From assembly GCA_963842525.1 (NCBI GenBank), contig CAWJGT010000003.1, positions 1,728,001-1,792,000 on the forward strand: a stretch of 64,000 nt of DNA, read 5' to 3'. The notes beneath the pieces are model-generated. The model was not told the origin of the DNA, did not search any database, and worked only from the letters and a program-made list of their open reading frames with translations. Shown here in pieces: positions 11,361 through 51,268 of this stretch (the first letter of the stretch is position 1; each line of letters starts with the position of its first letter). Source of the DNA: an uncultured Holophagales bacterium. Its GTDB lineage: Bacteria; Acidobacteriota; Thermoanaerobaculia; Multivoradales; UBA5704. The position numbers and the translations under genes were made by a program.

Positions 11361-12239
11361 ATGCCGACCGACGAGGGAGACAAGAGCGAGCGCGACCTCC
11401 TGGACGAGAGCCTCGGGCTCTTCGTCGAGCTCCGCCCGGGCAAACACCTGGGCGACATCGAGACGCCGGCTTCGGCTGTCGAAGAGGCGGACTATCCCCG
11501 GTTCCGGCGCCTGACCTTCTTCGGGGTGCTCGGCGGGCTCTGTCCGCTCATCCCGGTGCCCATCCTGGACGATTGGGCCCGGGAGAGGATCTACCGGCGG
11601 ATGGTGCACGACCTGGGGGAGAGCCGGGACCTCGCATTCACCGGGAACGAGGTGCGCATCCTGGCCGGCGCCGGCGAAAAGAGGCTGTGGCCCGGCTTCC
11701 TCAAGGCGGGCGCCCGGGTGGCCCGCGACGCGATGGGCAAGATCGTCCGCAAGCTCTTCAAGACCGCCTTCTACGTCCTGCTCGTCCGGGAAGGGGTCCA
11801 CCGCGCTGTCGAGACCTTCATCGAAGGATACCTCCTCCTGTACGCCGCCAGTCTGCCGCAGGGGCTGCGGCCGGCCGGCCGCACCGAGGAACGCGTCCGC
11901 CGGGTGCGGGCCGCGGTGGTCGCCACCATGCAGGAGGCGGACGTGACGCCGATCCGCAATGCCATCGGGCGGGCCTTCCGCCGCAGCTTCAGCCTGCTGG
12001 GCGAGGCCGCGCTCGTCCTCGGCCGTCAGCTCGGCCGGCTCCGCTCGGCCCCGGCGGCGAGCCAGGACCAGGAGATGGCCGGGGCCTCTCTGGAGGATGA
12101 AGAGGAGATCCTCGGCGGCTTCGTCGACCGCCTCGCCGCCTCGCTCTGGGGAAATCACGAGTACTTCGAGGGCCTGGAAAAGGCCTTCGAGGAGCGGCTC
12201 GCCCGCATGGAAAACCGCGTGGAGGAGAGACGCGCCTGA
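11361..12239 (+). CDS. Hypothetical protein
   Basis: Long ORF with host-like codon usage; hydrophobic GLCPLIPVPILDD segment; function not recognised. Confidence 0.6.
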   Translation: MPTDEGDKSERDLLDESLGLFVELRPGKHLGDIETPASAVEEADYPRFRRLTFFGVLGGLCPLIPVPILDDWARERIYRRMVHDLGESRDLAFTGNEVRILAGAGEKRLWPGFLKAGARVARDAMGKIVRKLFKTAFYVLLVREGVHRAVETFIEGYLLLYAASLPQGLRPAGRTEERVRRVRAAVVATMQEADVTPIRNAIGRAFRRSFSLLGEAALVLGRQLGRLRSAPAASQDQEMAGASLEDEEEILGGFVDRLAASLWGNHEYFEGLEKAFEERLARMENRVEERRA

Positions 12240-12630
12240 ACGCATCCAGAGTCACCTGGAATCGATTCAGGGTCACGCGGAATCGATTCAGAAAATTTGG
12301 AACCGATCCAGAAAATTTGGAACGCATCCCGAGTCACCCGGAATCGATCCAGAAAATTTGGAACGCGTCCCGAGTTTTCTGGAATCGATTCAGGGTCACG
12401 TGGAACCGATTCAGAAAATTTGGAATCGATCCAGAAAATTTGGAACGCGTCCCGGGTTTTCTGGAATCGATTCAGCCCAACCACAAAAAAAAAAGAGCGT
12501 CCCGAATTTTGGAATCGATTCAGGGTCACGCGGAACCGATTCAGAAAATTTGGAATCGATCCAGAAAATTTGGAACGCGTCGCGAGTTTCTTGAAATCGA
12601 TACAGCGTCATGCTGAATCGATTCAGAGTC
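12238..12630. repeat. Satellite-like tandem array of 20/21-bp monomers (GGAATCGATTCAGAAAATTT type)
   Basis: GGAA(T/C)CGAT or GGAACGC monomers starting at 12258, 12279, 12299, 12319, 12340, 12360, 12381, 12402 and onward. Confidence 0.9.
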
Positions 12631-12682
12631 GTCTGAAGCCAACACAGGATCACGGGCGCAGGTTCCCGGATAGAATCCGCCC

Positions 12683-13267: not shown

Positions 13268-13273
13268 CCTCAC

Positions 13274-13766
13274 GCAGCTCCAGTGTCCCGGTACGTTGCT
13301 TCATTGCCCCGGGGCAACGTGCCAGCGCCCCGGAGCAATGAGCCAGCGCAACTTCCGCGGCCCCAGTGCCCCGGTACGCCGCTCCATTGCCCCGGGGCAA
13401 TGATCCAGCGCCCCGGGACAACGTGCCAGCGCAATTTCCGCAGCTCCAGCGTCCTGGTACAGTGTTCCATTGCCCTGGGGCAGTGTTCCGGCGCCCCGGG
13501 ACAACGTGCCAGCGCAACTTCCGCAGCTCCAGCGTCCCGGTACGCTGCTCCATTGCCCCGGGGCAACGTGCCAGCGTCCCGGGGCAACGTGTCAGTGCAA
13601 CTTCCGCAGCCCCAGCGCCCCGGTACACTGCTCCATTGCCCCGGGGCAATGTTCCAGCGCCCCAGGGCAACGTGCCAGCGCAACTTCCGCAGCCCCAGTG
13701 CCCCGGTACACTGCTCCATTGCCCCGGGGCAACGTGCCAGCGCAACTTCCGCAGCTCCAGCGTCCC
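13274..13766. repeat. Tandem array with an 83-bp higher-order unit (21+21+21+20)
   Basis: GC(A/G)GC(T/C)CCAG unit starts at 13274, 13357, 13440, 13523, 13606, 13689, then 13751 (last spacing 62). Confidence 0.9.
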
Positions 13767-13790
13767 GCCCAGGTGTTTGCCGGCATCGAG

Positions 13791-17385
<3,595 letters not shown>

Positions 17386-17394
17386 CTCCACGAT

Positions 17395-17685
17395 TCAGAC
17401 GAGCAGGGGCTCGTCGAGGTCCGGCACGGCCTTCGTTCCATAGTGTTCGATCTTACCCTTCCAGCTCGATCCGAGATAGTAGACCCGCAGGCTGTCTTCC
17501 TTGTCGTTGATGATCCCCAGCAGGAGCAGCCGGAGCTGCGTCCATTGGGTTGGATCGACGATGCATTCGAAGACCGAGTTCTGGACGCGCTGGCCGAAAT
17601 CCAGGCAGGTCTTGGCGACCCGGCGCAGGCGCTTGCGCCCAGCCGGGGTCTTGGTGGAGACGTCGTAGCTGACGAGGACCATCAT
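17395..17685 (-). CDS. cas2: CRISPR-associated endoribonuclease Cas2
   Basis: [33 protein letters not shown]. Confidence 0.97.
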
Positions 17686-17712
17686 GAGAGCTGGCGCGAA
17701 GCTGCCGGAGGT

Positions 17713-18744
17713 TCATTTCCAGAAGAACGGCGGATAACCATCGAGATCTCCACGTAGGTGACGGGCAAGGAGGCATGCCTGGAGCCAGGGGATGAGGCCG
17801 ACTGTGGTTTTCTCGCCAAGGAACGGATGGACGATCTCTTCCTGCTTCCTCTTTTGATATGCCACGAGCACGGTCTTGCGGGTGTCCTTGTCCATGACCA
17901 CGCCGCCTGATTCTTCCTGCGAGAAGCCCGCCGCCCGGACCTGTTGCAGGTTGATGAGCGAGAGAGCGAGCCGGTCGGCAAGGAAGGTACGTAGGTCTTC
18001 CATGAGGTCGAGGGCGAGGCTTGCGCGCCCGGGCCGGTCGCGGTGCAGGAATCCGACGGCAGGGTCCAGGCCCACGGACTCCAGGGCTGCCTCGAGATCG
18101 TGGCGGAGAAGGGTATAGAGAAATCCAAGGAGGGAATTGACGTTGTCGAGGGGCGGCCTGCGGCTGCGCTCGCGAAAGAAAAAGCCCTCCTTCTGTTGCG
18201 TGATGAGATGGTCGAAAACCCCGAAGTAGGCACGGGCGGCAGCGCCTTCGATCCCGCGCAGAGCATCCAAGGGGACGCCTTCCTGGAGGCTGGAGAGGTG
18301 CTGGGAGAGAGCCACCGAGGCGGCTCGCAATGCCTCGCTTCCGGCGGATTCGGGCCGGTCCCGCAGAGCGCGCAGGATCACCGTCCGGCTATTGGCGATC
18401 TTCGCGGTAATGACGGTCCGGGCGAAGGCGGCAGAGGCGATGTCGTCGTCTGCCCGGCGGTACTGTTCGCGTCGCAGCAGGACGTTGCCCGAGACCGGGC
18501 CTTCGACCCGTGCCAGGAAACGGCCGTTCTCTGTGAGGAAGGAGACTGCGACGCCGCGTTCACCGCAGAAGCCCAGGAGGAATGGGCTGGCGCTGACCTG
18601 GCCGAAGCAGACGATGCTCCCGAGGGTATGGATGGGGACATGGAGCCGCGTTTCTTTTTCGATCCGCACGGCGACGGCCTCGCCGTCCTTGGCGAGGTAG
18701 GCGCCCTGGGTGGTGACATATAAAGTGTTCTGATGGCGTCTCAT
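17713..18744 (-). CDS. cas1: Type I-C Cas1
   Basis: NTLYVTTQG, GNVLLRREQY, LRGIEG, RRPPLDNVN, SLALDLMED, YPPFFWK. Confidence 0.97.
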   Translation of the reverse strand: MRRHQNTLYVTTQGAYLAKDGEAVAVRIEKETRLHVPIHTLGSIVCFGQVSASPFLLGFCGERGVAVSFLTENGRFLARVEGPVSGNVLLRREQYRRADDDIASAAFARTVITAKIANSRTVILRALRDRPESAGSEALRAASVALSQHLSSLQEGVPLDALRGIEGAAARAYFGVFDHLITQQKEGFFFRERSRRPPLDNVNSLLGFLYTLLRHDLEAALESVGLDPAVGFLHRDRPGRASLALDLMEDLRTFLADRLALSLINLQQVRAAGFSQEESGGVVMDKDTRKTVLVAYQKRKQEEIVHPFLGEKTTVGLIPWLQACLLARHLRGDLDGYPPFFWK

Positions 18745-19427
18745 GACGTTCCGTCTGCCTCCGATTGGAGAGCCATCTGCAGGGCTCGATCGAAATAGCG
18801 CAGCGCCGAGCCCTTGGGAGCGCCCGGCATGCAGACTTCGAGAAGGGAGCAGCGGTCGCACTTGGGCTCGCGAACGGGCTTGGGAGTCATGCCGGAGGCG
18901 ATCATTTGATGCAGGCGCACCGCCGTCTCTTCGGTCAGGCGCCGCAGCTCGGCGTCAAAGGTGATGTCTGTCCGGTGGCGGGTCTGTCCGTAGAAGAGGG
19001 CACCTGCCGGCACAGCGCTGCCGAGCATCTCCTCCAGGCAGAGACCCTGGGCACAGAGCTGGACTTCGTCGGCGCGGTGGCTCTTGGGCTTGCCCCGTTT
19101 GTATTCCACGGGAAAAGGTTGCCACGAGCCGGCCACGCCCGGCAGGGAAGCTCCCGGCGCGCCATCCGGCACGCGATGGAATTCGACCACGTCCGCCCGG
19201 CCGGAAAGCCCGAGGCGCAAACTGCGCAGTGGCAACCCGCGGGCGATCCGCAAATCACCGCGGGACTCCCTGAATCCGCTGTCCGCCTGCTCATGAAGAT
19301 GCCGGCCTTCGACCGTCAAAGGGTTTTCCACCCAGATCTGCTCCAGATGGATCAGCGCACACTGCCGTTCACAGAACAGCAGGTGTTGCAGCGCGGAGAC
19401 CGGGAGGAGGTCGTCTTCGGGGAACAT
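18741..19427 (-). CDS. cas4: Cas4 exonuclease
   Basis: FCERQ, G.ADVVE, PVEYKRG, VQLCAQ..CLEEM, C-terminal CDRCSLLEVC Fe-S cysteines. Confidence 0.97.
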   Translation of the reverse strand: MFPEDDLLPVSALQHLLFCERQCALIHLEQIWVENPLTVEGRHLHEQADSGFRESRGDLRIARGLPLRSLRLGLSGRADVVEFHRVPDGAPGASLPGVAGSWQPFPVEYKRGKPKSHRADEVQLCAQGLCLEEMLGSAVPAGALFYGQTRHRTDITFDAELRRLTEETAVRLHQMIASGMTPKPVREPKCDRCSLLEVCMPGAPKGSALRYFDRALQMALQSEADGTS

Positions 19428-19437
19428 GGGGTTATCC

Positions 19438-20361
19438 CTACAACTTTTCGTGCAGGGTCACTCCTGGCGGCAGTCCTTCCCGGTTGATCTGCACGTCGTA
19501 ATCGTCATAGACCCGTGCGGGCCTGGAGGAATCCTTCCTCGTGGCCGTGATGCGAGAGAAGAGTGCGTGGGCTGGCGCATTGCCCAGGAGGCTCTGGTGC
19601 TCGAACACGATCAGTTTGCGGGTTGCCATCTCGCCGCGGGTGGCGGAACGGTCGTGCTCGAACATGTTGAGGAGGGCCTGCCAGACGAGCTCGAGGTCTT
19701 CTTCCGTGAAGCCTGTATCGGCGGCGAGATGGGGTGATACGAATCCGTGGCCGCGGTAGAGCGCATAGGGTACGATCTCCTTCCGGCCCATGGTGCCGAC
19801 AACCTGGCCACTCTTTTCGATCTGGCTGTCCGCCTCACGCTGGGTTGCGACAGCCTTGCGAGTGATCGACTGCTCGAGAGTGGCGATGGGATCGACCGAG
19901 CGTGAAAAGGTGACCTGGACCGGCCCGCGGACCTGGCCGCAGTTGATGTCGAGAGTGAGAACTGCGCCGAAGGTGCGGATGTCAAAGTAGGTCTGGCACA
20001 TCCAGGCGCGGGCCTTCTCGACGTTGGACTGCCGCGTTTCCTTGGATTTTTCGTCGACGACGAGACCTTGGACCTCATAGGCCTGACGGTGGAGCTGTTC
20101 CAGGACGCCGTGCTGCTTGACGTAGATGTCGTAGCCAGGTGCTGGAGCACTGCCCTGGAGATCGGATTTCGCCAAGGTGATGAAGTTGCGGATCTTGCGC
20201 TTCAAGGAAACGTCGCTGATCAGCCCATGGCCGGTTTCTGGGTCGACGCGAGGCGCGTTGCCGGCATCGGGGTCGCCGTTGGGGTTGCCATTGGTCACGT
20301 CGAAGAGCAGGACGAAATCGTAACGATGGGCAATGGTAGGGATGGCGGTCGCGGTCGTCAT
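19438..20361 (-). CDS. cas7: Type I-C Cas7 (Csd2)
   Basis: NGNPNGDPDAGNAPR, DVSLKRKIRN, FDIRTFGAV, GQVRGPVQ, MFEHDRSATRG. Confidence 0.97.
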   Translation of the reverse strand: MTTATAIPTIAHRYDFVLLFDVTNGNPNGDPDAGNAPRVDPETGHGLISDVSLKRKIRNFITLAKSDLQGSAPAPGYDIYVKQHGVLEQLHRQAYEVQGLVVDEKSKETRQSNVEKARAWMCQTYFDIRTFGAVLTLDINCGQVRGPVQVTFSRSVDPIATLEQSITRKAVATQREADSQIEKSGQVVGTMGRKEIVPYALYRGHGFVSPHLAADTGFTEEDLELVWQALLNMFEHDRSATRGEMATRKLIVFEHQSLLGNAPAHALFSRITATRKDSSRPARVYDDYDVQINREGLPPGVTLHEKL

Positions 20362-20762
20362 TGCGCGTTCTCCTGTTCGGCGCTCTGGGCGCGCCGAGCG
20401 CGTTCTTCATGGGGCAAAAAGAGCTCGTGACGCTGATGGTGGTACCCGAGCACAAAAAGGCCCTGCTGTTCGAGCGGCAGGAACGGTGGGAACGAGGTGA
20501 TCGCTTCCAGAATGGAATCGGCATCTCGTTCGAGGTCATGGGCACGCCGTGGCCTCTCGCCGTCCTTGGCCTTGCGGGCATGATGGCGAAAATTCTTGAG
20601 AAGCCTGGGGAAGACTGCCGCAGGAGTGGCGGACGCCGAGCTGAAAAAGCGATCCACGACGTTCGCATTGATGTCTTTGCCCAGGGCTTCTTCCTGCATG
20701 CGTTCGAGGACGGCCATGAGCCGGCCGAGGCGATAGCCGGTTTCGGTGTTGTTCGGATCCAT
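20358..20762 (-). CDS. cas11: Cas11c small subunit from an internal in-frame start in cas8c
   Basis: GGAGGT SD-like sequence 10 nt before an in-frame ATG (MDPNNTETGYRLGRL); internal Cas11 translation is established for type I-C. Confidence 0.7.
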   Translation of the reverse strand: MDPNNTETGYRLGRLMAVLERMQEEALGKDINANVVDRFFSSASATPAAVFPRLLKNFRHHARKAKDGERPRRAHDLERDADSILEAITSFPPFLPLEQQGLFVLGYHHQRHELFLPHEERARRAQSAEQENAQ

Positions 20763-22214
20763 GGCTTCGGTGACCTCCGGGTAAAGGGCTGCGGCCTGGC
20801 GGCTGCGGCGGCGGTTGAGGACGGCCTTGATCAAGGCGGCGCGAGCGTCGTTGCGTTCCCGGTCGCTCCACTCGGTGCGGCCGATCTCAGCGCGGGAACG
20901 CTCGAGGGCACGCTGAAGAACGGCGAAAGGATATGGCGTGCCGCCGAGCGCGGCAGCCACCACCTGCCCGGCCAGGGCGGCAGGCACTCCTTTATCGTCT
21001 CCCCTCGGTGCGAGAGAGCGCATCAGGACCCGGAAAGGAAGGGCCGGAGGAGGCTCCTTTCCTTTTACAGCCGGTGTGTTGCGGACGATGGCGAGGTCTT
21101 TGAAGTGCTTTGCGAGATGGTTTGCCACCCGTTGAACCGTCGACTCGAACCAATCGCGAAGGATGGCGCGGCCTTGAGAGCCAGAAAGGGTAAGAGCATA
21201 GAAAAGCGATGCGTCTTCAATTTCGAAAGGCTTGCCTCGCCACAGGGAACGATAGAGCTCACGCACCTGCTCAGGATTGGCTTCCAGAAGGCCGGCGAGC
21301 TGCGAGGCCAGGCCGTCGCCGGCGGGATTGGAAGCCCAGAAACAGACGGCGGTGTCCGCGCTCAAGCGCAGGAAACGCTGCGGTAAAGTCTGGCCCGGCT
21401 GGCGGGGATCCGGGAATGCGGGATGCAGCAGGCGGTTCAAGGCGGTCGAGCAGGCCTCGGCCGCCTCCCGTGAGATCGGCGCATTCTCGTTTCCGGACCA
21501 GCCGTAGGACTCGAAGGCGCTGCTGTTGAAGGAGACCAGGGCCACTCCGCTGGTGCTTCCTCCAGGCACGTTCTTGACACCTGGAAGCTTGTCGACCGGC
21601 AGGGCCGGACGCCCTGAAACGAGGCAGATCTGCCGTTCGCCTTCAGCCTCTTCCGCCGCCGCGCGCTGGCGGCGCCAGTATTCCCGGACTCTCGGGCGGG
21701 ACGTCACCAGGCAGTCGAGATCCTTGTGGTAGACAAATCCGAAAAGATCGTTGCTCACACAACCCTGCGGCAGGGCAACGACGATCTCTCCTTGCTGGAG
21801 CCTGGCCAGAAGGGCACAGACAGCGCCGGTGCCTTCGTCGCCGGTCGCGGCGAAACAGTCCTCGGCGCGGTCACGGAAGAGGGCGAGACGGGAGGCCAGC
21901 TTCTCGGCTGGCCGCTGCTTGGCGGGATCGGGTTCCGGATCGATGCCGAGGGCGTATTCGGCTTTGTCGTAAAGAAAGAAGGCACGGTCGCCACTCGTGC
22001 GCCCCGGCTCGCGGGGGACTGCGAAGCTCTTCGGACGGGGCTTCGGCTTCTTTTTCTTTTCCTCGGAGGTATCAATCGTGTGAGTGCCTTGGATGCCGAG
22101 CAGCGCACCACCGTCCCCTACGGTGATCAGCCAGGCCAGCGGCTTCCACTCATAGTCGGGATCTTCGACGAGGTGCTCGGTTTGAGCGAGTTCGTAGAGC
22201 GCCTGGAGGATCAA
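20358..22214 (-). CDS. cas8c: Type I-C Cas8c (Csd1), TTG start overlapping the cas5 stop
   Basis: LILQAL.EL, LYDKAEY.LG, CLVSG, LVSFN.SAFESYG, GYRLGRL.AVLE, EQQGLFVLGYHHQ. Confidence 0.95.
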   Translation of the reverse strand: MILQALYELAQTEHLVEDPDYEWKPLAWLITVGDGGALLGIQGTHTIDTSEEKKKKPKPRPKSFAVPREPGRTSGDRAFFLYDKAEYALGIDPEPDPAKQRPAEKLASRLALFRDRAEDCFAATGDEGTGAVCALLARLQQGEIVVALPQGCVSNDLFGFVYHKDLDCLVTSRPRVREYWRRQRAAAEEAEGERQICLVSGRPALPVDKLPGVKNVPGGSTSGVALVSFNSSAFESYGWSGNENAPISREAAEACSTALNRLLHPAFPDPRQPGQTLPQRFLRLSADTAVCFWASNPAGDGLASQLAGLLEANPEQVRELYRSLWRGKPFEIEDASLFYALTLSGSQGRAILRDWFESTVQRVANHLAKHFKDLAIVRNTPAVKGKEPPPALPFRVLMRSLAPRGDDKGVPAALAGQVVAAALGGTPYPFAVLQRALERSRAEIGRTEWSDRERNDARAALIKAVLNRRRSRQAAALYPEVTEAMDPNNTETGYRLGRLMAVLERMQEEALGKDINANVVDRFFSSASATPAAVFPRLLKNFRHHARKAKDGERPRRAHDLERDADSILEAITSFPPFLPLEQQGLFVLGYHHQRHELFLPHEERARRAQSAEQENAQ

Positions 22215-22891
22215 GGGGCACCTCCGGCTGCGGCAGACTCCGTCTCGGGATGTTCCGGGATGTGAAGAGCGCCCCGCTCGAGCCGCGCGTTGAAAAAGAG
22301 AGGCCGATTGCGGCCGGAGTTGTACTCGATGTCCCACAACATCCACCCGAGATCGCGGCTGTCGTCGAAGGGCTGTGGAGCGTCGGCGGCCGGCAGGATG
22401 TCGGCAACGAATTCGCGGCAGCCGAAATAGGGCTGATGGAAGCTCTGTCCTTTCTCGACCCGGCGTGTGAAGATCTCCACGAACTTCGTCAGGTTGTCGA
22501 GAGGGCCGGCCCGGTCGGTCATCTCGCAACAGGCCTCCACTATATAGTCCACGTCCCGCAGAGCGAGGGTGTTGCGCTGGGCGCGGTCGCCGTCGGCGAA
22601 AAAGGGGACGACGATGCCACCGTCGCGGACGACGGCGGCTGCGGGTGCTACGGCTTTCGAGCTCACCTCATTGCGGCGAAAAGCGATGAAGCGGATCTCG
22701 CTGAGGACGAGGATACGTTCGACCCGCCAGCGGATCGCAGGTTTCCAAAGAACGGCCTCGAGAAGGCCGCGGGCGGCGGAAGGAGTCATCACCGGGTAGG
22801 AGACGCGCTCGACCTTGAGCTCCGGCCGGGTGAAACAGGCCAGCGGGCCGCGGGCGCGCAGGCGGAGAGTCGGGCTTCGAGATGCAGTCAT
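22211..22891 (-). CDS. cas5: Type I-C Cas5 (Cas5d, crRNA-processing)
   Basis: ACFTRPELKVERVSYPVMTPSAARG, PYFGCREF; AGGAGG SD upstream. Confidence 0.96.
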   Translation of the reverse strand: MTASRSPTLRLRARGPLACFTRPELKVERVSYPVMTPSAARGLLEAVLWKPAIRWRVERILVLSEIRFIAFRRNEVSSKAVAPAAAVVRDGGIVVPFFADGDRAQRNTLALRDVDYIVEACCEMTDRAGPLDNLTKFVEIFTRRVEKGQSFHQPYFGCREFVADILPAADAPQPFDDSRDLGWMLWDIEYNSGRNRPLFFNARLERGALHIPEHPETESAAAGGAP

Positions 22892-22922
22892 CACGTCCTC
22901 CTGGGACATTGAAGGAGACCGC

Positions 22923-25128
22923 TCAGACGACCAGGCGCGCAGGATCAGGCTGCGGGTCATCGTCGGCCACCAGACCGAAGTCGAGGTCGTACAGACCATG
23001 GAAAGCCGCAGAGAGGACCAGGACACCGTCGGCGACCTCTTCGAGCGCGTCTGCCTCTTTCAGGTTTGACACGTCCTTCGGGAAAATGTTGACCACAAAC
23101 GGCTGCAAAGCGCGCAGCCGCAGACGGTCGGGTCCGAGGCGGCGGAGAGACGCCAACCGCTCCTCGGCCTCGCCATAGGGAACGACGACCGGCACCGAGG
23201 CGTCCTCGATGAGACGCAGCTTGCGGGCGACAGAGGCGAAGCTCAGGCCCTGGCGAAGGGGCTGGATCCCCTTGGGGTCGAGATCGCAAAGGAGATAGAG
23301 ACGCCGGAAAAAAGCCTCATAAGTGCCGAGATCGTCGAGATCGATGTCACCCTCCAGGAGCATCGACTCGACGACCGCGAGGCCCTTTTCCGGGATCCCA
23401 GGAGGTGGCGGCGTCTCCGCCCGGAAGAAGACGACCTTTCCCACAGCCAACCGGCCTTCGCGATTGCACCGGCCGGCTGCCTGAACCAGGCTGTCGATAC
23501 CCCCCAGGCAGCGATAGACCACGGGAAAATCGACGTCGACACCGGCCTCGATGAGCTGCGTCGAGACCAGCCGGCACGGGAAGCTCCGCATGGAGACGCG
23601 CCCTGATGTTGGCCAGCTTCGCCGAACGATGGGCCGGACACATGAGAGCCGACAAGTGAAACCGGTCTTCCGCAGGCAGAGCCTGGGCCAGCGCGCGCGC
23701 GTCACGGCGCCGGTGGACGATCGCCAGGACACGCTCGTGGCGACCGAGCTCCTCCGCCAACCTGGCATACGGAAGGACGGCTGGAGCAGCGTCCGGCCAC
23801 GTGAAGTGGACCCGCTTGAGATCCTGGACCAGCGATTTAGGATCGGGGGCGATCTCATGGACTGCTTCGAGCCCTTGGGGAAGGCTCTCCCTCCTGGTGA
23901 GCGCCGGTTGGGTCGCCGTCGTGAGCACGACCGTACAACCATAGTAATCGACCAGCTCTTTGAGGATCTCGAGAACCACGAGGAGGTAGTCCTCGGGCAA
24001 GGTCTGAGCCTCGTCGAGAAGGATGACGCTACGCGTGATGTTGTGCAGCTTGCGACAGCGCGACGGCGAGGCCGCAAACAGGGATTCGAAGAGCTGGACG
24101 TTGGTAGTGACGATGACCGGTGCGTCCCAGTTTTCCGCGGCCAACCGGCGGCGGATCTCGGCCTCGCGGTTCCGCTCCTCGGCGGCGAGCGGATCGAGCC
24201 CCGAATGGTGCTCGATCACGTTGGCCTCGCCCAGAGCGCGGCGGTAGACGGCTGCATTCTGCTCGATGATGCTGGTGAACGGGATGGCGACGATCACCCG
24301 CCGGAGCCCGTGCCGCTCGGCGTGACGCAGGGCGAAGGACATGGCCGCGAGGGTCTTGCCGCCGCCGGTAGGCACGGTGAGGCTGAGCACACCCGGCGAG
24401 AGCTCGGCCTTCTCGCGACAGGCCGCAAGCACCTCGGCACGGCGAACGTTGATGGGCGAAGACCGCAGCTCCTCGGGCACGCCTGCCGCAAGGCTGTCCA
24501 CATGATCGTCCAGGCGTAGCCGCAGCGTTGGGAGATCAGCCCATCCGGCGACGGCGGCCTGGCGCAAACCTGGCGAGTAGAAGTCCTCCGTCGCCAGGTA
24601 GTCTGCGTCGACCAGGCTGGAGAAGAGGAAGCGGATCCAGACCTCGAAGCTCCCCAGGCCGGCTCGCTGAAGGCGCTCCGGGAGACGGGGGAGGCTCGGA
24701 GAGGTGAGCTGCTCGGGAAGCGCGGGGCGAAGAGAATCAAGGATCGGACGGTTGACCTTGAGCCGTTCCTGGAGAGGAGAAGGGCCGCCCTCTTCGGAGG
24801 CCGTCAGGTTTGCCAGTCCGGCATGGTGGCCGGCGATGGCAAAGGCGAGCGGAAGACCGGCGATCCTGTCCTTGGCGTAAGCCAGTGCCGCTCCGGCACC
24901 GGAGTGCTCCACGGATTCACCGCTTCCACGCAAGCGACGCTGGAATTCGGGCAGGTACTTCCCCAGGTCATGCCACAGCCCAGCAAGCCGGCCCCACTCA
25001 GCGGCCTCGAAGGCGGCAGCGAAGTCTTCCGCGAGGCGGGAGACCTTCAGCAGATGGGCCTCGAGCTCTTCCCATTCCGAATCGGGGCGGCCTGCAAGGG
25101 TGTGGGCGAAGAGCTTGGAGTTGCTCAT
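22923..25128 (-). CDS. cas3: Cas3 HD nuclease-helicase; +1 frameshift near 23582
   Basis: HDLGK, GHH, LVDAD, VPTGGGKT and DEAQ in one frame; VSTQLIEAGVDVDFP and QAAGRCNR in the shifted frame. Confidence 0.93.
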
Positions 25129-25151
25129 GGCACCGGTCCAGCCGGTTGTGC

Positions 25152-25769
25152 TCAACGCCAGTCTTGGGGACGCTCCAGAATGATCCCGTTCGGCTTGATC
25201 ACGTGGTCAGGCATCTGGCTTGCCGCCAGTTTACGACGGCCAATCGTGAAGTACGCGTGGGCGGCTTGTTGCAGGAGCCGAGAGCTTCGTCGCGGAGGAA
25301 ACGCTACGATGATTCGTTTACCGGGAATACCCCTGAGCTTGAGGAGAGCCGGCGCTAGGTCTCCATCCCCCGATACAAGAATTGCTTCGTCGAAGGTGTT
25401 TTGAAAGCCGTCTACCAGGATCTCTGTTGCAATATTTACGTCGGTCATTTTCTCATTTGGCACAAGGCACTCAAACCCACACTTCGAACACCGCCGAAGC
25501 TCATCCTGATACTGACCAAAATGCAGCGAGCAACGGTCGCCACCCTCTATAGCCTCCAGGAATACCTTCTGTTGAAGCCACTTGGAGCCGGGCCCCGAAA
25601 GGCGGGCAGTGAAGTACTTGACACCAACCAGCACCTGCCCATCTCTCAGAAGATTCTTGAGCAGAAGAACGGGGTCCAGCCAAAGAAACCGATCCCAGCC
25701 TCGTGTGCGAAGCCCAAAGTAGAAGTTGAAACCGTCGAGATAGCCCATGACCCTTTCAGCCACACTCAT
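25152..25769 (-). CDS. NYN (LabA/DUF88, PIN-like) domain ribonuclease
   Basis: YLDGFN, YFTA, EKMTDVNIA, ILVSGDGDL acidic motifs; visibly AT-richer than flanks; ends 23 nt before the cas3 start. Confidence 0.9.
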   Translation of the reverse strand: MSVAERVMGYLDGFNFYFGLRTRGWDRFLWLDPVLLLKNLLRDGQVLVGVKYFTARLSGPGSKWLQQKVFLEAIEGGDRCSLHFGQYQDELRRCSKCGFECLVPNEKMTDVNIATEILVDGFQNTFDEAILVSGDGDLAPALLKLRGIPGKRIIVAFPPRRSSRLLQQAAHAYFTIGRRKLAASQMPDHVIKPNGIILERPQDWR

Positions 25770-25781
25770 TCCTTTCGCCGC

Positions 25782-25882
25782 TTGACGAAGGCGGCTCTCG
25801 TGGGGTATAAGTTCGCTTGAACACCCCCGGCGGTAGCACCGCCGGACCGACAGCCCCTGGAAACGGGGGCTGTTTCTTTTTC
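25782..25882 (+). ncRNA. Candidate ~65-nt two-hairpin sRNA with its own promoter and terminator, antisense to the NYN/cas leader
   Basis: TTGACG(25782)-N18-TATAAG(25806); hairpin CCGGCGGT-AGC-ACCGCCGG (25827-25845); terminator ACAGCCCC...GGGGCTGT-TTCTTTTT (25850-25881). Confidence 0.55.
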
Positions 25883-25952
25883 TGCCCTCCAGAGATTCAG
25901 TGTAGCGCTTTTCTGGTCCCGTGCACCCTCCATGGAGGCCTCTTCTAGTTCT

Positions 25953-26007
25953 AGCACTTCTACCACGAAGTGTAGAATACTACCATGGTGCGCCAGGATG
26001 GTCTCAA
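25953..26007 (-). promoter_or_regulatory. Predicted NYN/cas operon promoter overlapping a TTC-PAM-flanked partial protospacer
   Basis: Extended -10 TGGTAGTAT (25985-25977), TTGAGA at 26007-26002; TTC (25969-25967) followed by GTGGTAGAAGTGCT. Confidence 0.55.
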
Positions 26008-26099
26008 TGCCCCATTAGGGCAGGTCAAGTCAAGCGACGGGTGAGCTGAGCTCGCTCACCGCCGGCTTGTGTAATCCTACCCACCCTGGGCGCCGGTTT

Positions 26100-26196
26100 G
26101 TTCGCTTCTGTCTCGTACAGGGCGTGGGTTGAAACGTGGTTGACGTACTCCGCAAGAGGGGAAGGAGGAGCGGTTCGCCCGCTCCTCCTGGTTTCT
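26100..26196 (+). ncRNA. Candidate crRNA-like regulatory RNA (degenerate I-C repeat, spacer, hairpin)
   Basis: GTTCGCTTCTGTCTCGTACAGGGCGTGGGTTGAAAC (last 16 nt match the array repeat 15/16), spacer GTGGTTGACGTACTCC..., 11-bp stem at 26163-26189. Confidence 0.7.
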
Positions 26197-26302
26197 GCTG
26201 CGGCTCGCGGGCTCGGCGCTACCGCCCGCTGATCTACCAGGCCGCAGGGTAAGTTTCCTGCCGAGGGGCGCAAGCTCAGAAGGACGTGGAGGAAGGTGCC
26301 GC

Positions 26303-26388
26303 CGCCCCGCTGGGGCTTGGGGTCGATTGGGGGCCGCAGACCCAGGGCTGACGCCCTGGGCTACACGCCGTGGCCCCCTCCGGGGGCT
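26303..26388. repeat. REP/REPIN-like palindromic element (second family)
   Basis: Nested palindromes GCCCCGCTGGGGC, CCCAGGGC-TGAC-GCCCTGGG and GCCCCCTCCGGGGGC. Confidence 0.5.
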
Positions 26389-26420
26389 CAAAGCATTTCT
26401 CACTCGCTCCGTCCTCCAGC

Positions 26421-27107
26421 TCAACAATCCGTATACGACAGGCTGCCGGGCCTCCTGGGGTCCTCTTCGATCAGGACCAGCTCGTAATCATCTGTGGCCG
26501 ACGCGGGGTTGCGCCAGGCGGCGAACCAGCGGCCGTAGAGGTCGAAGACCTGGAAGTCGACCTCTTCGGGCGCGAGGGCTGGAGTGACCTCCGGTGGATC
26601 GGTGAGGGGCAGGAGGGTCCTGGGCCCGAGCAGGTCGCGCGCGGCCAGCTCCTGAATGCGCGCGGGGTCCATGCGGATCCACGTCTGCTGGCCGGCCGGC
26701 TCGAGGCCGGAAAGGGCCGGCAGGAGGAGGTCGGTCAGCACGTGCTGGATCGGGGCCGGATCGATGCCGGAGCCGTCTTCGACCGCGGCAAGGGCCTGCT
26801 CGAGGTCGGTGCGGACGTCGGCGAGAGTTTGCAGCGCGCCGGAGAGCACTGAGCCGGCCTGGAGGGGGACCGGCGTATGGGCCGGCGGGTCGAGGGTGAC
26901 GAGAAAGGCGCTGAGGTCGCGGATCGCCGGGTAGACGTGGTCGCCGAGGAGGCATTGCAGCCGCGCGTGGCGGTCGTGGAAGGCCGCCGGGTCCTCGGGG
27001 CTCAAAAGAGCCGCGAGCTGGTCCGCGAAGGACCGCAGGCGGTCGAGTGCGCGCAGCGTATGCGTCCGCAAGGCCGGCGGGTGGTGGGCAGATGACGTGA
27101 GCGGCAT
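26421..27107 (-). CDS. Hypothetical protein downstream of an XRE regulator
   Basis: Helical-looking ORF with host-like codon usage; start uncertain (27107 or 27194). Confidence 0.6.
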   Translation of the reverse strand: MPLTSSAHHPPALRTHTLRALDRLRSFADQLAALLSPEDPAAFHDRHARLQCLLGDHVYPAIRDLSAFLVTLDPPAHTPVPLQAGSVLSGALQTLADVRTDLEQALAAVEDGSGIDPAPIQHVLTDLLLPALSGLEPAGQQTWIRMDPARIQELAARDLLGPRTLLPLTDPPEVTPALAPEEVDFQVFDLYGRWFAAWRNPASATDDYELVLIEEDPRRPGSLSYTDC

Positions 27108-27138
27108 GAGGATCTCCCTAGAAAAGAAGCGGTCGAAA

Positions 27139-27486
27139 TCAATCCCGGCCCCCGCGGAGGCGAGCGAGGAGGCGTTCCAGGAAGGCGACGTCATCGGCCG
27201 AGACCTGCCCTGCCGCGGCAGAGGCGGGGAGAGGACGGGAGGCGGCGCCGAAGACGAGGTGCTCGAGATCGGTCTCGAAGGTGTTGCGCAACGCGACCAG
27301 CTCGTCGAGCGTGGGGATGCGCCTGCCGTTCTCGATGCGGGAGAGGCGATGAGCCGGCAACCCGGCGCGGCGGGCGAGCTCCCTCTGTTTCCAGCCCTTG
27401 AGACCTCTCAGTTGCACGATGCGGGAACCGAGGGCCCGGCGATCGAGGACAGGAGCAACGCGGAGGTCGGGCTCGTTCGGGCTCAC
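27139..27486 (-). CDS. XRE-family HTH transcriptional regulator
   Basis: LGSRIVQLRGLKGWKQRELARRAGLPAHRLSRIENGRRIPTLDEL. Confidence 0.9.
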   Translation of the reverse strand: MSPNEPDLRVAPVLDRRALGSRIVQLRGLKGWKQRELARRAGLPAHRLSRIENGRRIPTLDELVALRNTFETDLEHLVFGAASRPLPASAAAGQVSADDVAFLERLLARLRGGRD

Positions 27487-50932: not shown

Positions 50933-50944
50933 CCTCAGTTTCGG

Positions 50945-51268
50945 TCCCGAGACGCTGCTCCAGCGTGAGCTGACACTGGTTTTGCGGAGCGCGCGCTGGT
51001 CCAGTGTCCCGGGACGCTGGTCCAGCGTGAGCAGACGCTGGTTTTGCGGAGCGCGCGCTGGTCCAGTGTCTCGGGACGCTGGTCCAGCGCGAGCAGACGC
51101 TGGTTTTGCGGAGCGCACGCTGGTCCAGTGTCCCGGGACGCTGCTCCAGCGTGAGCAGACGCTGGTTTTGCGGAGCGCACGCTGGTCCAGTGTCCCGGGA
51201 CGCTGCTCCAGCGTGAGCAGACGCTGGCTTTGCGGAGCGTACGCTGGTCCAGTGTCCCGGGACGCTGG
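50945..51268. repeat. Tandem array with a 62-bp unit (21+21+20), about 5 copies
   Basis: CTGG(T/C)TTTGCGGAGCG recurs at 50976, 51038, 51100, 51162 and 51224. Confidence 0.92.

Follow-up and report, generated by a model that had tools for sequence, protein, structure and literature searches.

A candidate creR-type guide with a covarying target site upstream of a type I-C CRISPR-Cas operon that opens with an NYN (HEC-09) gene

The window, a 64,000-nt stretch of one contig from an uncultured Holophagales bacterium, harbours a type I-C CRISPR-Cas locus on its minus strand (Table 1). Based on Pfam matches and a count of the repeats, cas3, cas5d, cas8c, cas7, cas4, cas1 and cas2 are present without cas6 and are accompanied by 32-nt repeats ending in ATTGAAAC, which identifies the system as I-C. 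Cas5, Cas8c and Cas7 each match their families over the full length, and the true start of cas5 probably lies later than that of the listed open reading frame. The frame of cas3 is broken near 23586, which may reflect decay of the locus or, alternatively, an indel in the assembly.

The first gene of the operon encodes an NYN-domain protein whose residues 5-205 align with positions 2-203 of the 203-position PADLOC profile PDLC04163 (HEC-09). It is positioned between the inferred promoter and cas3, with a gap of at most ~24 nt between its stop and the start of cas3. Among 12 sequences of the family, the PIN-like acidic residues D110, D135 and D137 are invariant and D12 is nearly so; because these active-site aspartates are conserved, the protein is plausible as an RNase that derepression could release.

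Table 1. Features of the I-C locus and its upstream region, in positions of the window
Feature	Position	Strand	Basis or remark
CRISPR array, 55 x 32-nt repeat	13791-17392	-	repeat spacing 60-70 nt
cas4, cas1, cas2	17395-19427	-	Pfam matches
cas7 (Csd2)	19438-20361	-	family match
cas8c (Csd1), ORF as listed	20358-22529	-	family match
cas5 (Cas5d), ORF as listed	22211-23026	-	family match
cas3 (HD + helicase), frame broken	22923-25155	-	sequence/domain matches
NYN-domain protein, 205 aa, HEC-09, first operon gene	25152-25769	-	Pfam PF01936 E 5.4e-12; PADLOC E 4.2e-72
Promoter-like TTGACG-18-TATAAG reading into the sRNA	25782-25811	+	overlaps NYN ribosome-binding region
64-nt two-hairpin sRNA with intrinsic terminator	25817-25880	+	antisense to and upstream of NYN gene
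Target: TTC PAM (25969-25967) and 14-nt partial protospacer (25966-25953)	25953-25969	-	pairing, chance estimate, covarying equivalents in relatives
Extended -10-like box (25985-25977) of the inferred NYN-cas promoter	25970-25985	-	sequence only
psi-R, degenerate solitary I-C repeat	26100-26135	+	15/16 match to array repeat 3' end
psi-S, pseudo-spacer, ~27 nt	26136-26162	+	array spacers longer, ~32-38 nt
GC hairpin, 11 bp, terminator-like, with T-rich tail	26163-26199	+	sequence/terminator scoring

Upstream of the NYN gene and on the opposite strand, the first-pass annotation had described a solitary I-C repeat followed by a spacer and an 11-bp hairpin, all coordinates and letters of which were verified. 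In the transcribed orientation the array repeat ends in GGGCGTGGATTGAAAC and the solitary copy in GGGCGTGGGTTGAAAC, with 15 of the 16 positions identical, and the pseudo-spacer that follows begins with GTGGTTGACGTACTCC. The last 11 nt of the solitary repeat would become the 5' handle of a crRNA; 10 of them are retained as in the array, the single change (A to G) being found in none of 12 related copies. To delimit this motif genome-wide, the 14-mer GCGTGGRTTGAAAC was searched with up to one mismatch in the 9.95-Mb genome, where it recovered the 55 array repeats and the solitary copy, plus two mini-array repeats on contig C34 and a single-mismatch site on contig C9; its reversed control recovered nothing. 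The copy upstream of the NYN gene is the sole solitary exact match in the genome; the C9 site (C9:1798630) was rejected as a further handle copy, being a one-mismatch match at chance level, and partial targets looked for with the spacers of the C34 mini-array yielded none that was convincing.

The hairpin (26163-26189), with 8 GC pairs among its 11 bp, is followed by the tail GGTTTCTGCT and was scored as terminator-like. It probably defines the 3' end of the predicted small RNA and occupies the place where a second repeat would be. Two details of the earlier description did not hold. The stem of the repeat copy, which had been called foldable, consists of only four Watson-Crick and two G-U pairs, and its fold (-7.2 kcal/mol; z = 0.16) is no stabler than those of shuffled sequences. 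The proposed remnant of a second repeat at 26173, GTTCGCCCGC, is the loop plus the descending arm of the hairpin, and the equivalent hairpins of 13 of 13 relatives carry the G-run first, a polarity opposite to that of the repeat stem. Rfam models scored only below threshold between 25700 and 26500 (Acido-Lenti-1 at 26341-26388, E 1e-4; sX12 at 25812-25880, E 0.03) and gave no matches at the loci L004 and L007.

The pseudo-spacer finds a PAM-flanked, seed-proximal and partial complement between the unit and the NYN gene, where the minus strand at 25969-25953 reads TTC followed by GTGGTAGAAGTGCT. Letter by letter, the proposed pairing was reproduced, with matches at positions 1-5, 7, 8, 10, 11, 13 and 14, mismatches at 6, 9 and 12, and nothing past 14. 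The site had also been placed immediately downstream of an extended -10 box, and TGGTAGTAT indeed ends 7 nt before the TTC, a geometry repeated in all five loci of the Cas3 group to which this locus belongs. In each of these five loci, overlapping TAnnnT boxes of the two strands directly adjoin the target, and TGn precedes the cas-strand box in four. In the window the opposite-strand box, TAGAAT, overlaps TGGTAGTAT and may serve as the -10 element of creR; a strict sigma-70 consensus scan of both strands from 25700 to 26500 returned no promoters.

A chance origin of the match between spacer and target is unlikely. TTC plus the seed (positions 1-5, 7 and 8) occurs at 51 sites on both strands of the genome, which corresponds to an expectation of ~0.003 for the 651-bp intergenic region. 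According to the table of these sites, some of which lie in a repeated element, the one at the cas operon is alone in matching four of the five positions 9, 10, 11, 13 and 14, and no other genomic target has extended pairing like it. A search for viral mimics of the guide returned at least 119 matches to the 14-base pattern, at chance level, and a repeat-like handle upstream in none of the 80 loci listed.

To examine whether spacer and target change together in homologous I-C loci, as had been proposed, 28 I-C cas3 loci from 27 of the 92 genomes of the family were surveyed, among which 13 carry a solitary handle motif, one a true array and 14 neither in the flanks examined. These 13 loci each feature a solitary handle, a pseudo-spacer of 22-34 nt and then, in 13 of 13, a GC hairpin; the pseudo-spacers differ from one locus to another, and the targets lie beside a -10-like box in their own locus. 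A full seed match (7 of 7), TTC-flanked and within 700 nt, was observed in 8 of the 13 loci with seven distinct seeds, against 3 of 156 non-cognate spacer/locus pairs (two of them between L101 and L103, which have a common seed) and 74 of 26,000 shuffled spacers (0.28%). Kinship among the loci makes these counts overstate independence, the distinct seeds being seven. A ninth locus matches 6 of 7 seed positions and 7 of 8 in the extension, and the remaining four (L100, L113, L117 and L124) lacked a full seed match within the sequence examined. Replacing TTC by other triplets gave one match for GAA, one for TTT and 13 for AAC, the last being the self-match; the TTC specificity thus holds in the relatives. 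Over the nine pairs, position 6 matches once and position 12 three times, while positions 9, 10 and 11, none of which was used for selection, match in 7, 9 and 7 pairs, respectively. Judged from these alignments, the freedom of positions 6 and 12 to vary is the every-sixth-base signature of Cascade.

For example, a genome of the same genus (G002) has the same NYN-cas3 layout and a repeat identical to that of the window, yet its pair differs from the window's, with the pseudo-spacer AGTGTCTGAGC... opposite TTC-AGTGTATGAGC. When the intergenic region was compared with 40 relatives by DNA similarity, matches were confined to the sRNA element and to a dispersed repeat (26260-26396); neither guide nor target was matched. 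Among 80 metagenome I-C cas3 loci, the handle is solitary in six and a target accompanies it in two of these six (7 of 3,000 for shuffles), the motif being too lineage-specific for such a search.

The covariation supports the first-pass proposal of a CreA/CreR-type guide for I-C Cascade at the NYN-cas3 promoter. We consider it likely that the unit at 26100-26199 (handle-keeping degenerate repeat, short pseudo-spacer and terminator) is a creR-type autoregulator of Cas expression. We infer that the creR RNA is transcribed, processed by Cas5d and loaded into the I-C Cascade (Cas5-Cas8c-Cas7), whereupon its seed would pair with the TTC-flanked site at approximately +1 to +17 of a compact and probably bidirectional promoter, with TGGTAGTAT serving the cas strand and TAGAAT that of creR. 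As 11 of the first 14 bases pair and none beyond, Cascade should bind without licensing Cas3. Such binding would lower the transcription of NYN-cas3-cas5-cas8c-cas7-cas4-cas1-cas2, and probably that of creR itself; if crRNAs titrated Cascade, if it were lost or if an anti-CRISPR inhibited it, the operon would be derepressed.

A dead relic, in which the repeat decayed after a rearrangement of the array and the spacer meets its target by chance, would be in keeping with the weak stem of the repeat copy, the frameshifted cas3 and the report that 34% of I-C loci carry solitary repeat-like sequences, many of them thought spurious (PMC10120712). This is very improbable, however, given the chance expectation above, the cognate TTC-flanked targets that covary in 8 of 13 loci, the neutral positions 6 and 12 that fit pairing in Cascade, and the conserved position of the hairpin. 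Hardly any weight falls, likewise, on a decoy or recombination element, that is, a repeat RNA that soaks up Cas5 or Cascade as viral Racr RNAs do, or a site of recombination, in either case without sequence-specific targeting: single repeat units have been suggested to act in these ways (PMC10120712), but a decoy has no need of a PAM-flanked complementary site and leaves the covariation of pseudo-spacer and target unexplained. A further role, which would add to autoregulation rather than replace it, is that the guide mainly keeps the putative NYN RNase silent in the manner of CreTA or CrePA, so that loss or inhibition of Cascade would free a growth-arresting RNase, resulting in addiction to the CRISPR locus or in abortive infection against anti-CRISPR phages. 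Several features point this way: the NYN gene is the first one downstream of the targeted promoter and closely precedes cas3, its PIN-like aspartates are conserved, its family has been proposed as a defence candidate, and it has an antisense sRNA of its own, as do the toxin genes of RNA-controlled toxin-antitoxin pairs. Furthermore, protein toxins repressed by Cascade are known in I-F, cargo toxin-antitoxin genes lie behind mini-arrays in I-D, and the guide/target pair was kept in both G000 and G002 after the NYN gene had been acquired. Against it, HEC-09 gave no phage defence in a published screen (bioRxiv 10.1101/2024.01.29.577857), the NYN gene adjoins cas3 without an upstream guide in G084, and NYN and cas genes were found together in none of 80 NYN loci elsewhere and none of 80 metagenome I-C loci. 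In addition, three close I-C relatives (L101, L103 and L104) carry the guide/target unit directly on cas3 without NYN, which argues that the guide predates the NYN gene and controls the cas genes by itself. A guard role is somewhat unlikely.

The antisense sRNA is conserved in 72 of 80 homologous HEC-09 loci and is absent from Rfam, and it is a part of the HEC-09 module, not of the CRISPR system. A consensus scan of HEC-09 loci failed to place the promoter in the NYN sense, with candidates upstream of the sRNA terminator in 10 of 68 and in between in 5 of 68. One rather unlikely extension is that the Cascade-gated promoter took up a complete HEC-09 module, consisting of the NYN RNase and the 64-nt antisense sRNA. 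The NYN mRNA from the gated promoter would then read through the sRNA gene, the sRNA would oppose it, and the occupancy by Cascade would set the balance of the two; once an anti-CRISPR or the loss of Cascade lifted repression, the sRNA would be outpaced by the mRNA and the cell brought to a halt by the RNase. If true, the locus would be the I-C counterpart of CreTA/CrePA, combining two layers of RNA with a protein toxin, and HEC-09 a protein-plus-RNA system across many phyla instead of a single gene.

HEC-09 was proposed by Payne et al. (2024; bioRxiv 10.1101/2024.01.29.577857) as Hma-embedded candidate 09. The NYN protein here matches the model in full and, like the founding examples, is embedded in another defence system, which is an I-C CRISPR-Cas operon instead of Hma. 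As the words sRNA, antisense, non-coding, small RNA and intergenic do not occur in the main text of that paper, the associated sRNA was seemingly not noted there. No printed description of the NYN/I-C pairing or of the HEC-09 sRNA was found by limited literature searches together with this word search.

The control of cas operons by such elements is already in print, and the novelty claimed at first pass was overstated: CreR autorepression has been demonstrated for I-B, I-E and V-A, I-C elements have been predicted (Liu et al. 2023; bioRxiv 10.1101/2023.03.10.532045), and mini-arrays that control cargo genes have been described as well. Single-repeat I-C examples may already stand in the supplements of the CreR or mini-array papers. 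The unit resembles the published CreRs in its degenerate repeat with the bases of the 5' handle, its location upstream of cas genes, its short pseudo-spacer with PAM-flanked, seed-proximal and partial complementarity beside a cas promoter (here inferred), and its predicted autorepression, relieved upon titration or inhibition of Cascade. However, the type I CreR and CreA of published accounts are laid out as mini-CRISPRs, the second of their two degenerate repeats supplying a 3' handle. Here, as in all 13 relatives, a single recognizable repeat is present and a terminator-like hairpin follows the pseudo-spacer, an arrangement shared with the V-A CreR, in which the hairpin likewise follows the pseudo-spacer. 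The regulated operon also differs in opening with a non-cas RNase gene and in being known from sequence. With CreTA and CrePA (Li et al. 2021; Shu et al. 2024, bioRxiv 10.1101/2024.01.05.574328), the common trait would be a crRNA-like RNA acting with Cascade at the promoter of a potentially harmful gene; those systems are I-B or I-F and have a separate divergent toxin gene, while the NYN gene is in an I-C locus and is predicted to be co-transcribed with cas3. Shmakov et al. (2023; PMC10120712) describe comparable regulatory mini-arrays and single repeat units, with solitary repeat-like units in type I whose spacers partly complement the promoters of cas or cargo genes, with cargo located between element and cas genes, and with relatives that keep the element without cargo. 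The regulation of cargo is described there mainly for I-D and toxin-antitoxin genes; in the available part of that paper, I-C appears in statistics only, including a mini-array in 7% of loci.

The locus is a well-supported natural candidate for self-regulation by a type I-C CRISPR system, a type for which the published accounts, as far as available, hold only predictions. The related loci constitute a covariation series of seven different seed/target pairs, all with TTC as the PAM, in which positions 6 and 12 may vary; this series could inform reporter assays as well as the design of I-C guides that do not lead to cleavage. Since HEC-09 genes carry a conserved antisense sRNA, any test of HEC-09 function would have to account for it. 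In this Holophagales locus, a defence-candidate RNase of that family would stand under the control of Cascade.

The minus strand of the window carries a complete type I-C locus, consisting of a CRISPR array and the genes cas2, cas1, cas4, cas7, cas8c/Csd1, cas5d and cas3, the last split over two frames. Compared with three close homologues (L101, L103 and L104), cas3 has a 1-nt insertion, with the HD and helicase N-terminal part in one frame and the C-terminal part in another; the break may be a real inactivation (a pseudogene) or an assembly indel. The stop codon of an NYN-domain gene overlaps the cas3 start in the ORFs as listed, and the region upstream of the NYN gene contains a solitary repeat, a pseudo-spacer and a target of the latter.

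Positions of the type I-C locus features and of neighbouring elements in the window
Feature	Position	Strand	Remarks
Tandem-repeat blocks	12238-12640; 13273-13770; 50944-51268		Periods 20-130 nt; some adjoin the leader-distal end of the CRISPR array, others lie elsewhere in the window
CRISPR array	13791-17392	-	55 copies of a 32-nt repeat
cas3 insertion	near 23586 (about 23580-23590)	-	1 nt
NYN-domain gene	25152-25769	-	205 aa; PF01936, E 5.4e-12; directly upstream of cas3
Region upstream of NYN	25770-26420		651 bp
Promoter plus 64-nt element	25782-25885	+
64-nt element, predicted sRNA	25817-25880	+	Two hairpins and T-tract; between target and NYN start
Target	25969-25953	-	TTC-GTGGTAGAAGTGCT
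Solitary repeat copy	26100-26135	+	15/16 match to 3′ end of array repeat
Dispersed repeat	26260-26396		About 130 nt; further copies in own genome and many relatives
Acido-Lenti-1 (Rfam)	26341-26388		Sub-threshold match within dispersed repeat, E 1e-4
Overlapping genes upstream of locus	26421-27486	-	257-aa protein without family match; 115-aa HTH (Xre-type) protein, weakly similar to antitoxin- or repressor-type HTH models

The letters and coordinates that the first-pass annotation had assigned to the repeat copy, spacer and target all proved correct when the sequence was re-read. Behind the solitary repeat come the pseudo-spacer GTGGTTGACGTACTCC... and an 11-bp GC hairpin; with its T-rich tail, the hairpin scores as an intrinsic terminator. 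The TTC-flanked target, 7 nt downstream of TGGTAGTAT, agrees with the pseudo-spacer at positions 1-5, 7, 8, 10, 11, 13 and 14, as had been claimed. Outside the array and the solitary copy, the only matches to GCGTGGRTTGAAAC in the 9.95-Mb genome are a mini-array of two repeats on a different contig and a single site with 1 mismatch, and a reversed control of the handle pattern (the repeat 3′-end bases that form the crRNA 5′ end) gave 0 matches; thus, the solitary copy is not a chance motif. TTC plus the seed (positions 1-5, 7 and 8) occurs 51 times in the genome, therefore ~0.003 sites are expected in the 651-bp intergenic region, and among the 51 the cas-locus target appears to be the only one that matches in addition at 4 of the 5 positions 9, 10, 11, 13 and 14. 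Two other details of the annotation held up less well: the repeat copy, described as keeping a foldable stem, has only a short one whose stability is no better than that of shuffles, and the supposed second repeat remnant was rejected, as it falls inside the terminator-like hairpin. Far from the cas locus, an orphan mini-array (contig C34:745141-745290) consists of two full I-C repeats plus a degenerate third, and a search for partial targets of its two spacers gave none that was convincing.

In a genome of the same genus (G002), the locus is likewise NYN-cas3-cas5-cas8c-cas7-cas4-cas1-cas2-array and the repeat is identical; a solitary handle, oriented divergently as in the window, lies upstream of NYN. 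Its pseudo-spacer (AGTGTCTGAGC...) differs from that of the window, and its upstream region contains TTC-AGTGTATGAGC, which matches its own pseudo-spacer at positions 1-5 and 7-11 and is located 8 nt downstream of TTGACA-17-TAGCAT. A survey of every I-C cas3 homologue in the 92 family genomes then covered 28 loci from 27 genomes: 13 have a solitary handle motif, one has a true array in its flank, and 14 have neither in the ~1.5-kb flanks searched (that of L099 ends after 41 nt, at a contig end). A TTC-flanked match to all seven seed positions was found within 700 nt in 8 of the 13 solitary-handle loci; a ninth, L107, matches at 6 of 7 seed and 7 of 8 extension positions, and no full TTC-flanked seed match was found within 700 nt in the other four (L100, L113, L117 and L124). 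As controls, non-cognate spacer/locus pairs gave 3 matches in 156 (two of them from the related pair L101/L103) and shuffled spacers 74 in 26000. Because the loci are kin, the survey counts are not independent trials. When all 64 triplets were tried as PAM, TTC gave 8 matches, AAC 13 (the self-match at the handle), GAA and TTT 1 each, and the others 0.

Seven different seeds occur among the eight cognate spacer/target pairs. With L107 included (nine pairs), position 6 is matched in one and position 12 in three, positions 9, 10 and 11 (unused in selection) are matched in seven, nine and seven, respectively, and pairing fades beyond ~position 13-17. This profile is the pattern expected if Cascade flips out every sixth guide base and no more than partial pairing is kept. 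Judged from the sequence comparisons, seven distinct co-varying pairs are hard to explain without function even among kin, and the solitary-repeat unit is probably a CreR-type autoregulator. That it is instead a dead relic whose match arose by chance appears very improbable, and a decoy or recombination element equally so, as both leave the PAM-specific covariation unexplained. In a compatible extension of the CreR reading, albeit a rather doubtful one, the guide would also hold a harmful RNase in check, as a CreA-like guard does.

Each of the 13 solitary-handle loci has a strong GC hairpin behind the pseudo-spacer, 22-34 nt past the handle, and in most of them a T-rich tail follows it; a second repeat is recognisable in none. 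Loci of the window's Cas3 group (67-71% identity) have the unit upstream of cas3 (L101, L103 and L104) or NYN-cas3 (the window and G002), in divergent orientation; a more distant Cas3 group (about 40% identity) has it between cas3 and cas5. Throughout the window's group (five loci), TAnnnT hexamers that overlap on the two strands adjoin the target, and in four of the five TGn stands ahead of the cas-strand hexamer; this suggests one compact bidirectional promoter that would serve the cas genes in one direction and creR in the opposite one. A strict consensus scan of 25700-26500 returned 0 promoters on either strand. Six loci (L113, L114, L117, L118, L123 and L124) belong to a second I-C lineage of the family with the unit between cas3 and cas5; in L114, L118 and L123 the target, flanked by TTC, is about 25 nt upstream of a TTGACA-like box that faces cas5, and pairing in L114 extends to 17 of 18 positions.

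The NYN protein is a full-length match to HEC-09 of PADLOC (E 4.2e-72), and its putative active-site aspartates are conserved. HEC-09 is reported as a candidate defence gene embedded in Hma systems, with a MARF1-like NYN fold and inactive against the phages tested (bioRxiv 10.1101/2024.01.29.577857). Homologues are present in 9 of the 92 family genomes and adjoin I-C cas3 in three (G000, G002 and G084); no guide was found upstream of NYN in G084. Cas genes were found within 4 kb in 0 of 80 homologous NYN loci from other phyla, and NYN in 0 of 80 metagenome I-C loci. As the guide/target unit immediately precedes cas3 in close relatives, without NYN between, the simplest history would be that a HEC-09 cassette entered an already CreR-controlled locus between the promoter and cas3, after which G000 and G002 would have kept and co-varied the guide/target pair.

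The 64-nt element of the window, which includes an intrinsic terminator, is preceded by TTGACG-18-TATAAG, and 8 of the 9 family homologues of NYN have the element upstream, each with a near-consensus promoter that lies on the strand opposite NYN. A covariance model derived from these 8 detects it in 72 of 80 HEC-09 loci (L018-L097) from many phyla, always antisense to NYN and about 50-180 nt upstream of its start; L126-L133 carry it as well. In the alignment of 78 distinct sequences, which was fitted to the model and thereby favours structure, pairing holds in 98.9% of cells and covariation is strong, with compensatory changes at 14 of 17 pairs; 0 of 500 shuffles reach the observed pairing values and slid controls pair at ≤52%. 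A G-U pair in 68 of the 78 sequences establishes that the element's strand is opposite to that of NYN. The element was not found in Rfam, and the main text of the HEC-09 paper (bioRxiv 10.1101/2024.01.29.577857) has no word for such an sRNA. The element may regulate the NYN RNase in antisense or serve as its antitoxin; in the window, a transcript from the proposed Cascade-gated promoter must cross the sRNA gene in antisense before reaching NYN.

CreR autorepression has been demonstrated for I-B, I-E and V-A, and CreA-like elements have been reported in I-C from a manual search (bioRxiv 10.1101/2023.03.10.532045). In a systematic survey, 34% of I-C loci had repeat-like sequences and 7% had mini-arrays, and cargo genes behind mini-arrays are described in I-D (PMC10120712). 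Phage mimics aimed at I-C loci have also been reported, as has a Cascade-repressed protein toxin in I-F (bioRxiv 10.1101/2024.01.05.574328). With such regulation already published, and predicted for I-C, the element would belong to a known class. Type I CreA/CreR is described as a two-repeat mini-CRISPR, whereas the unit here has one recognisable repeat and resembles the single repeat plus terminator reported for V-A CreR; similar I-C layouts may already be contained in the supplements of the CreR and mini-array papers. The distinguishing features of the element are one repeat plus a terminator in a I-C setting, HEC-09 as the cargo, and an sRNA belonging to that cargo.
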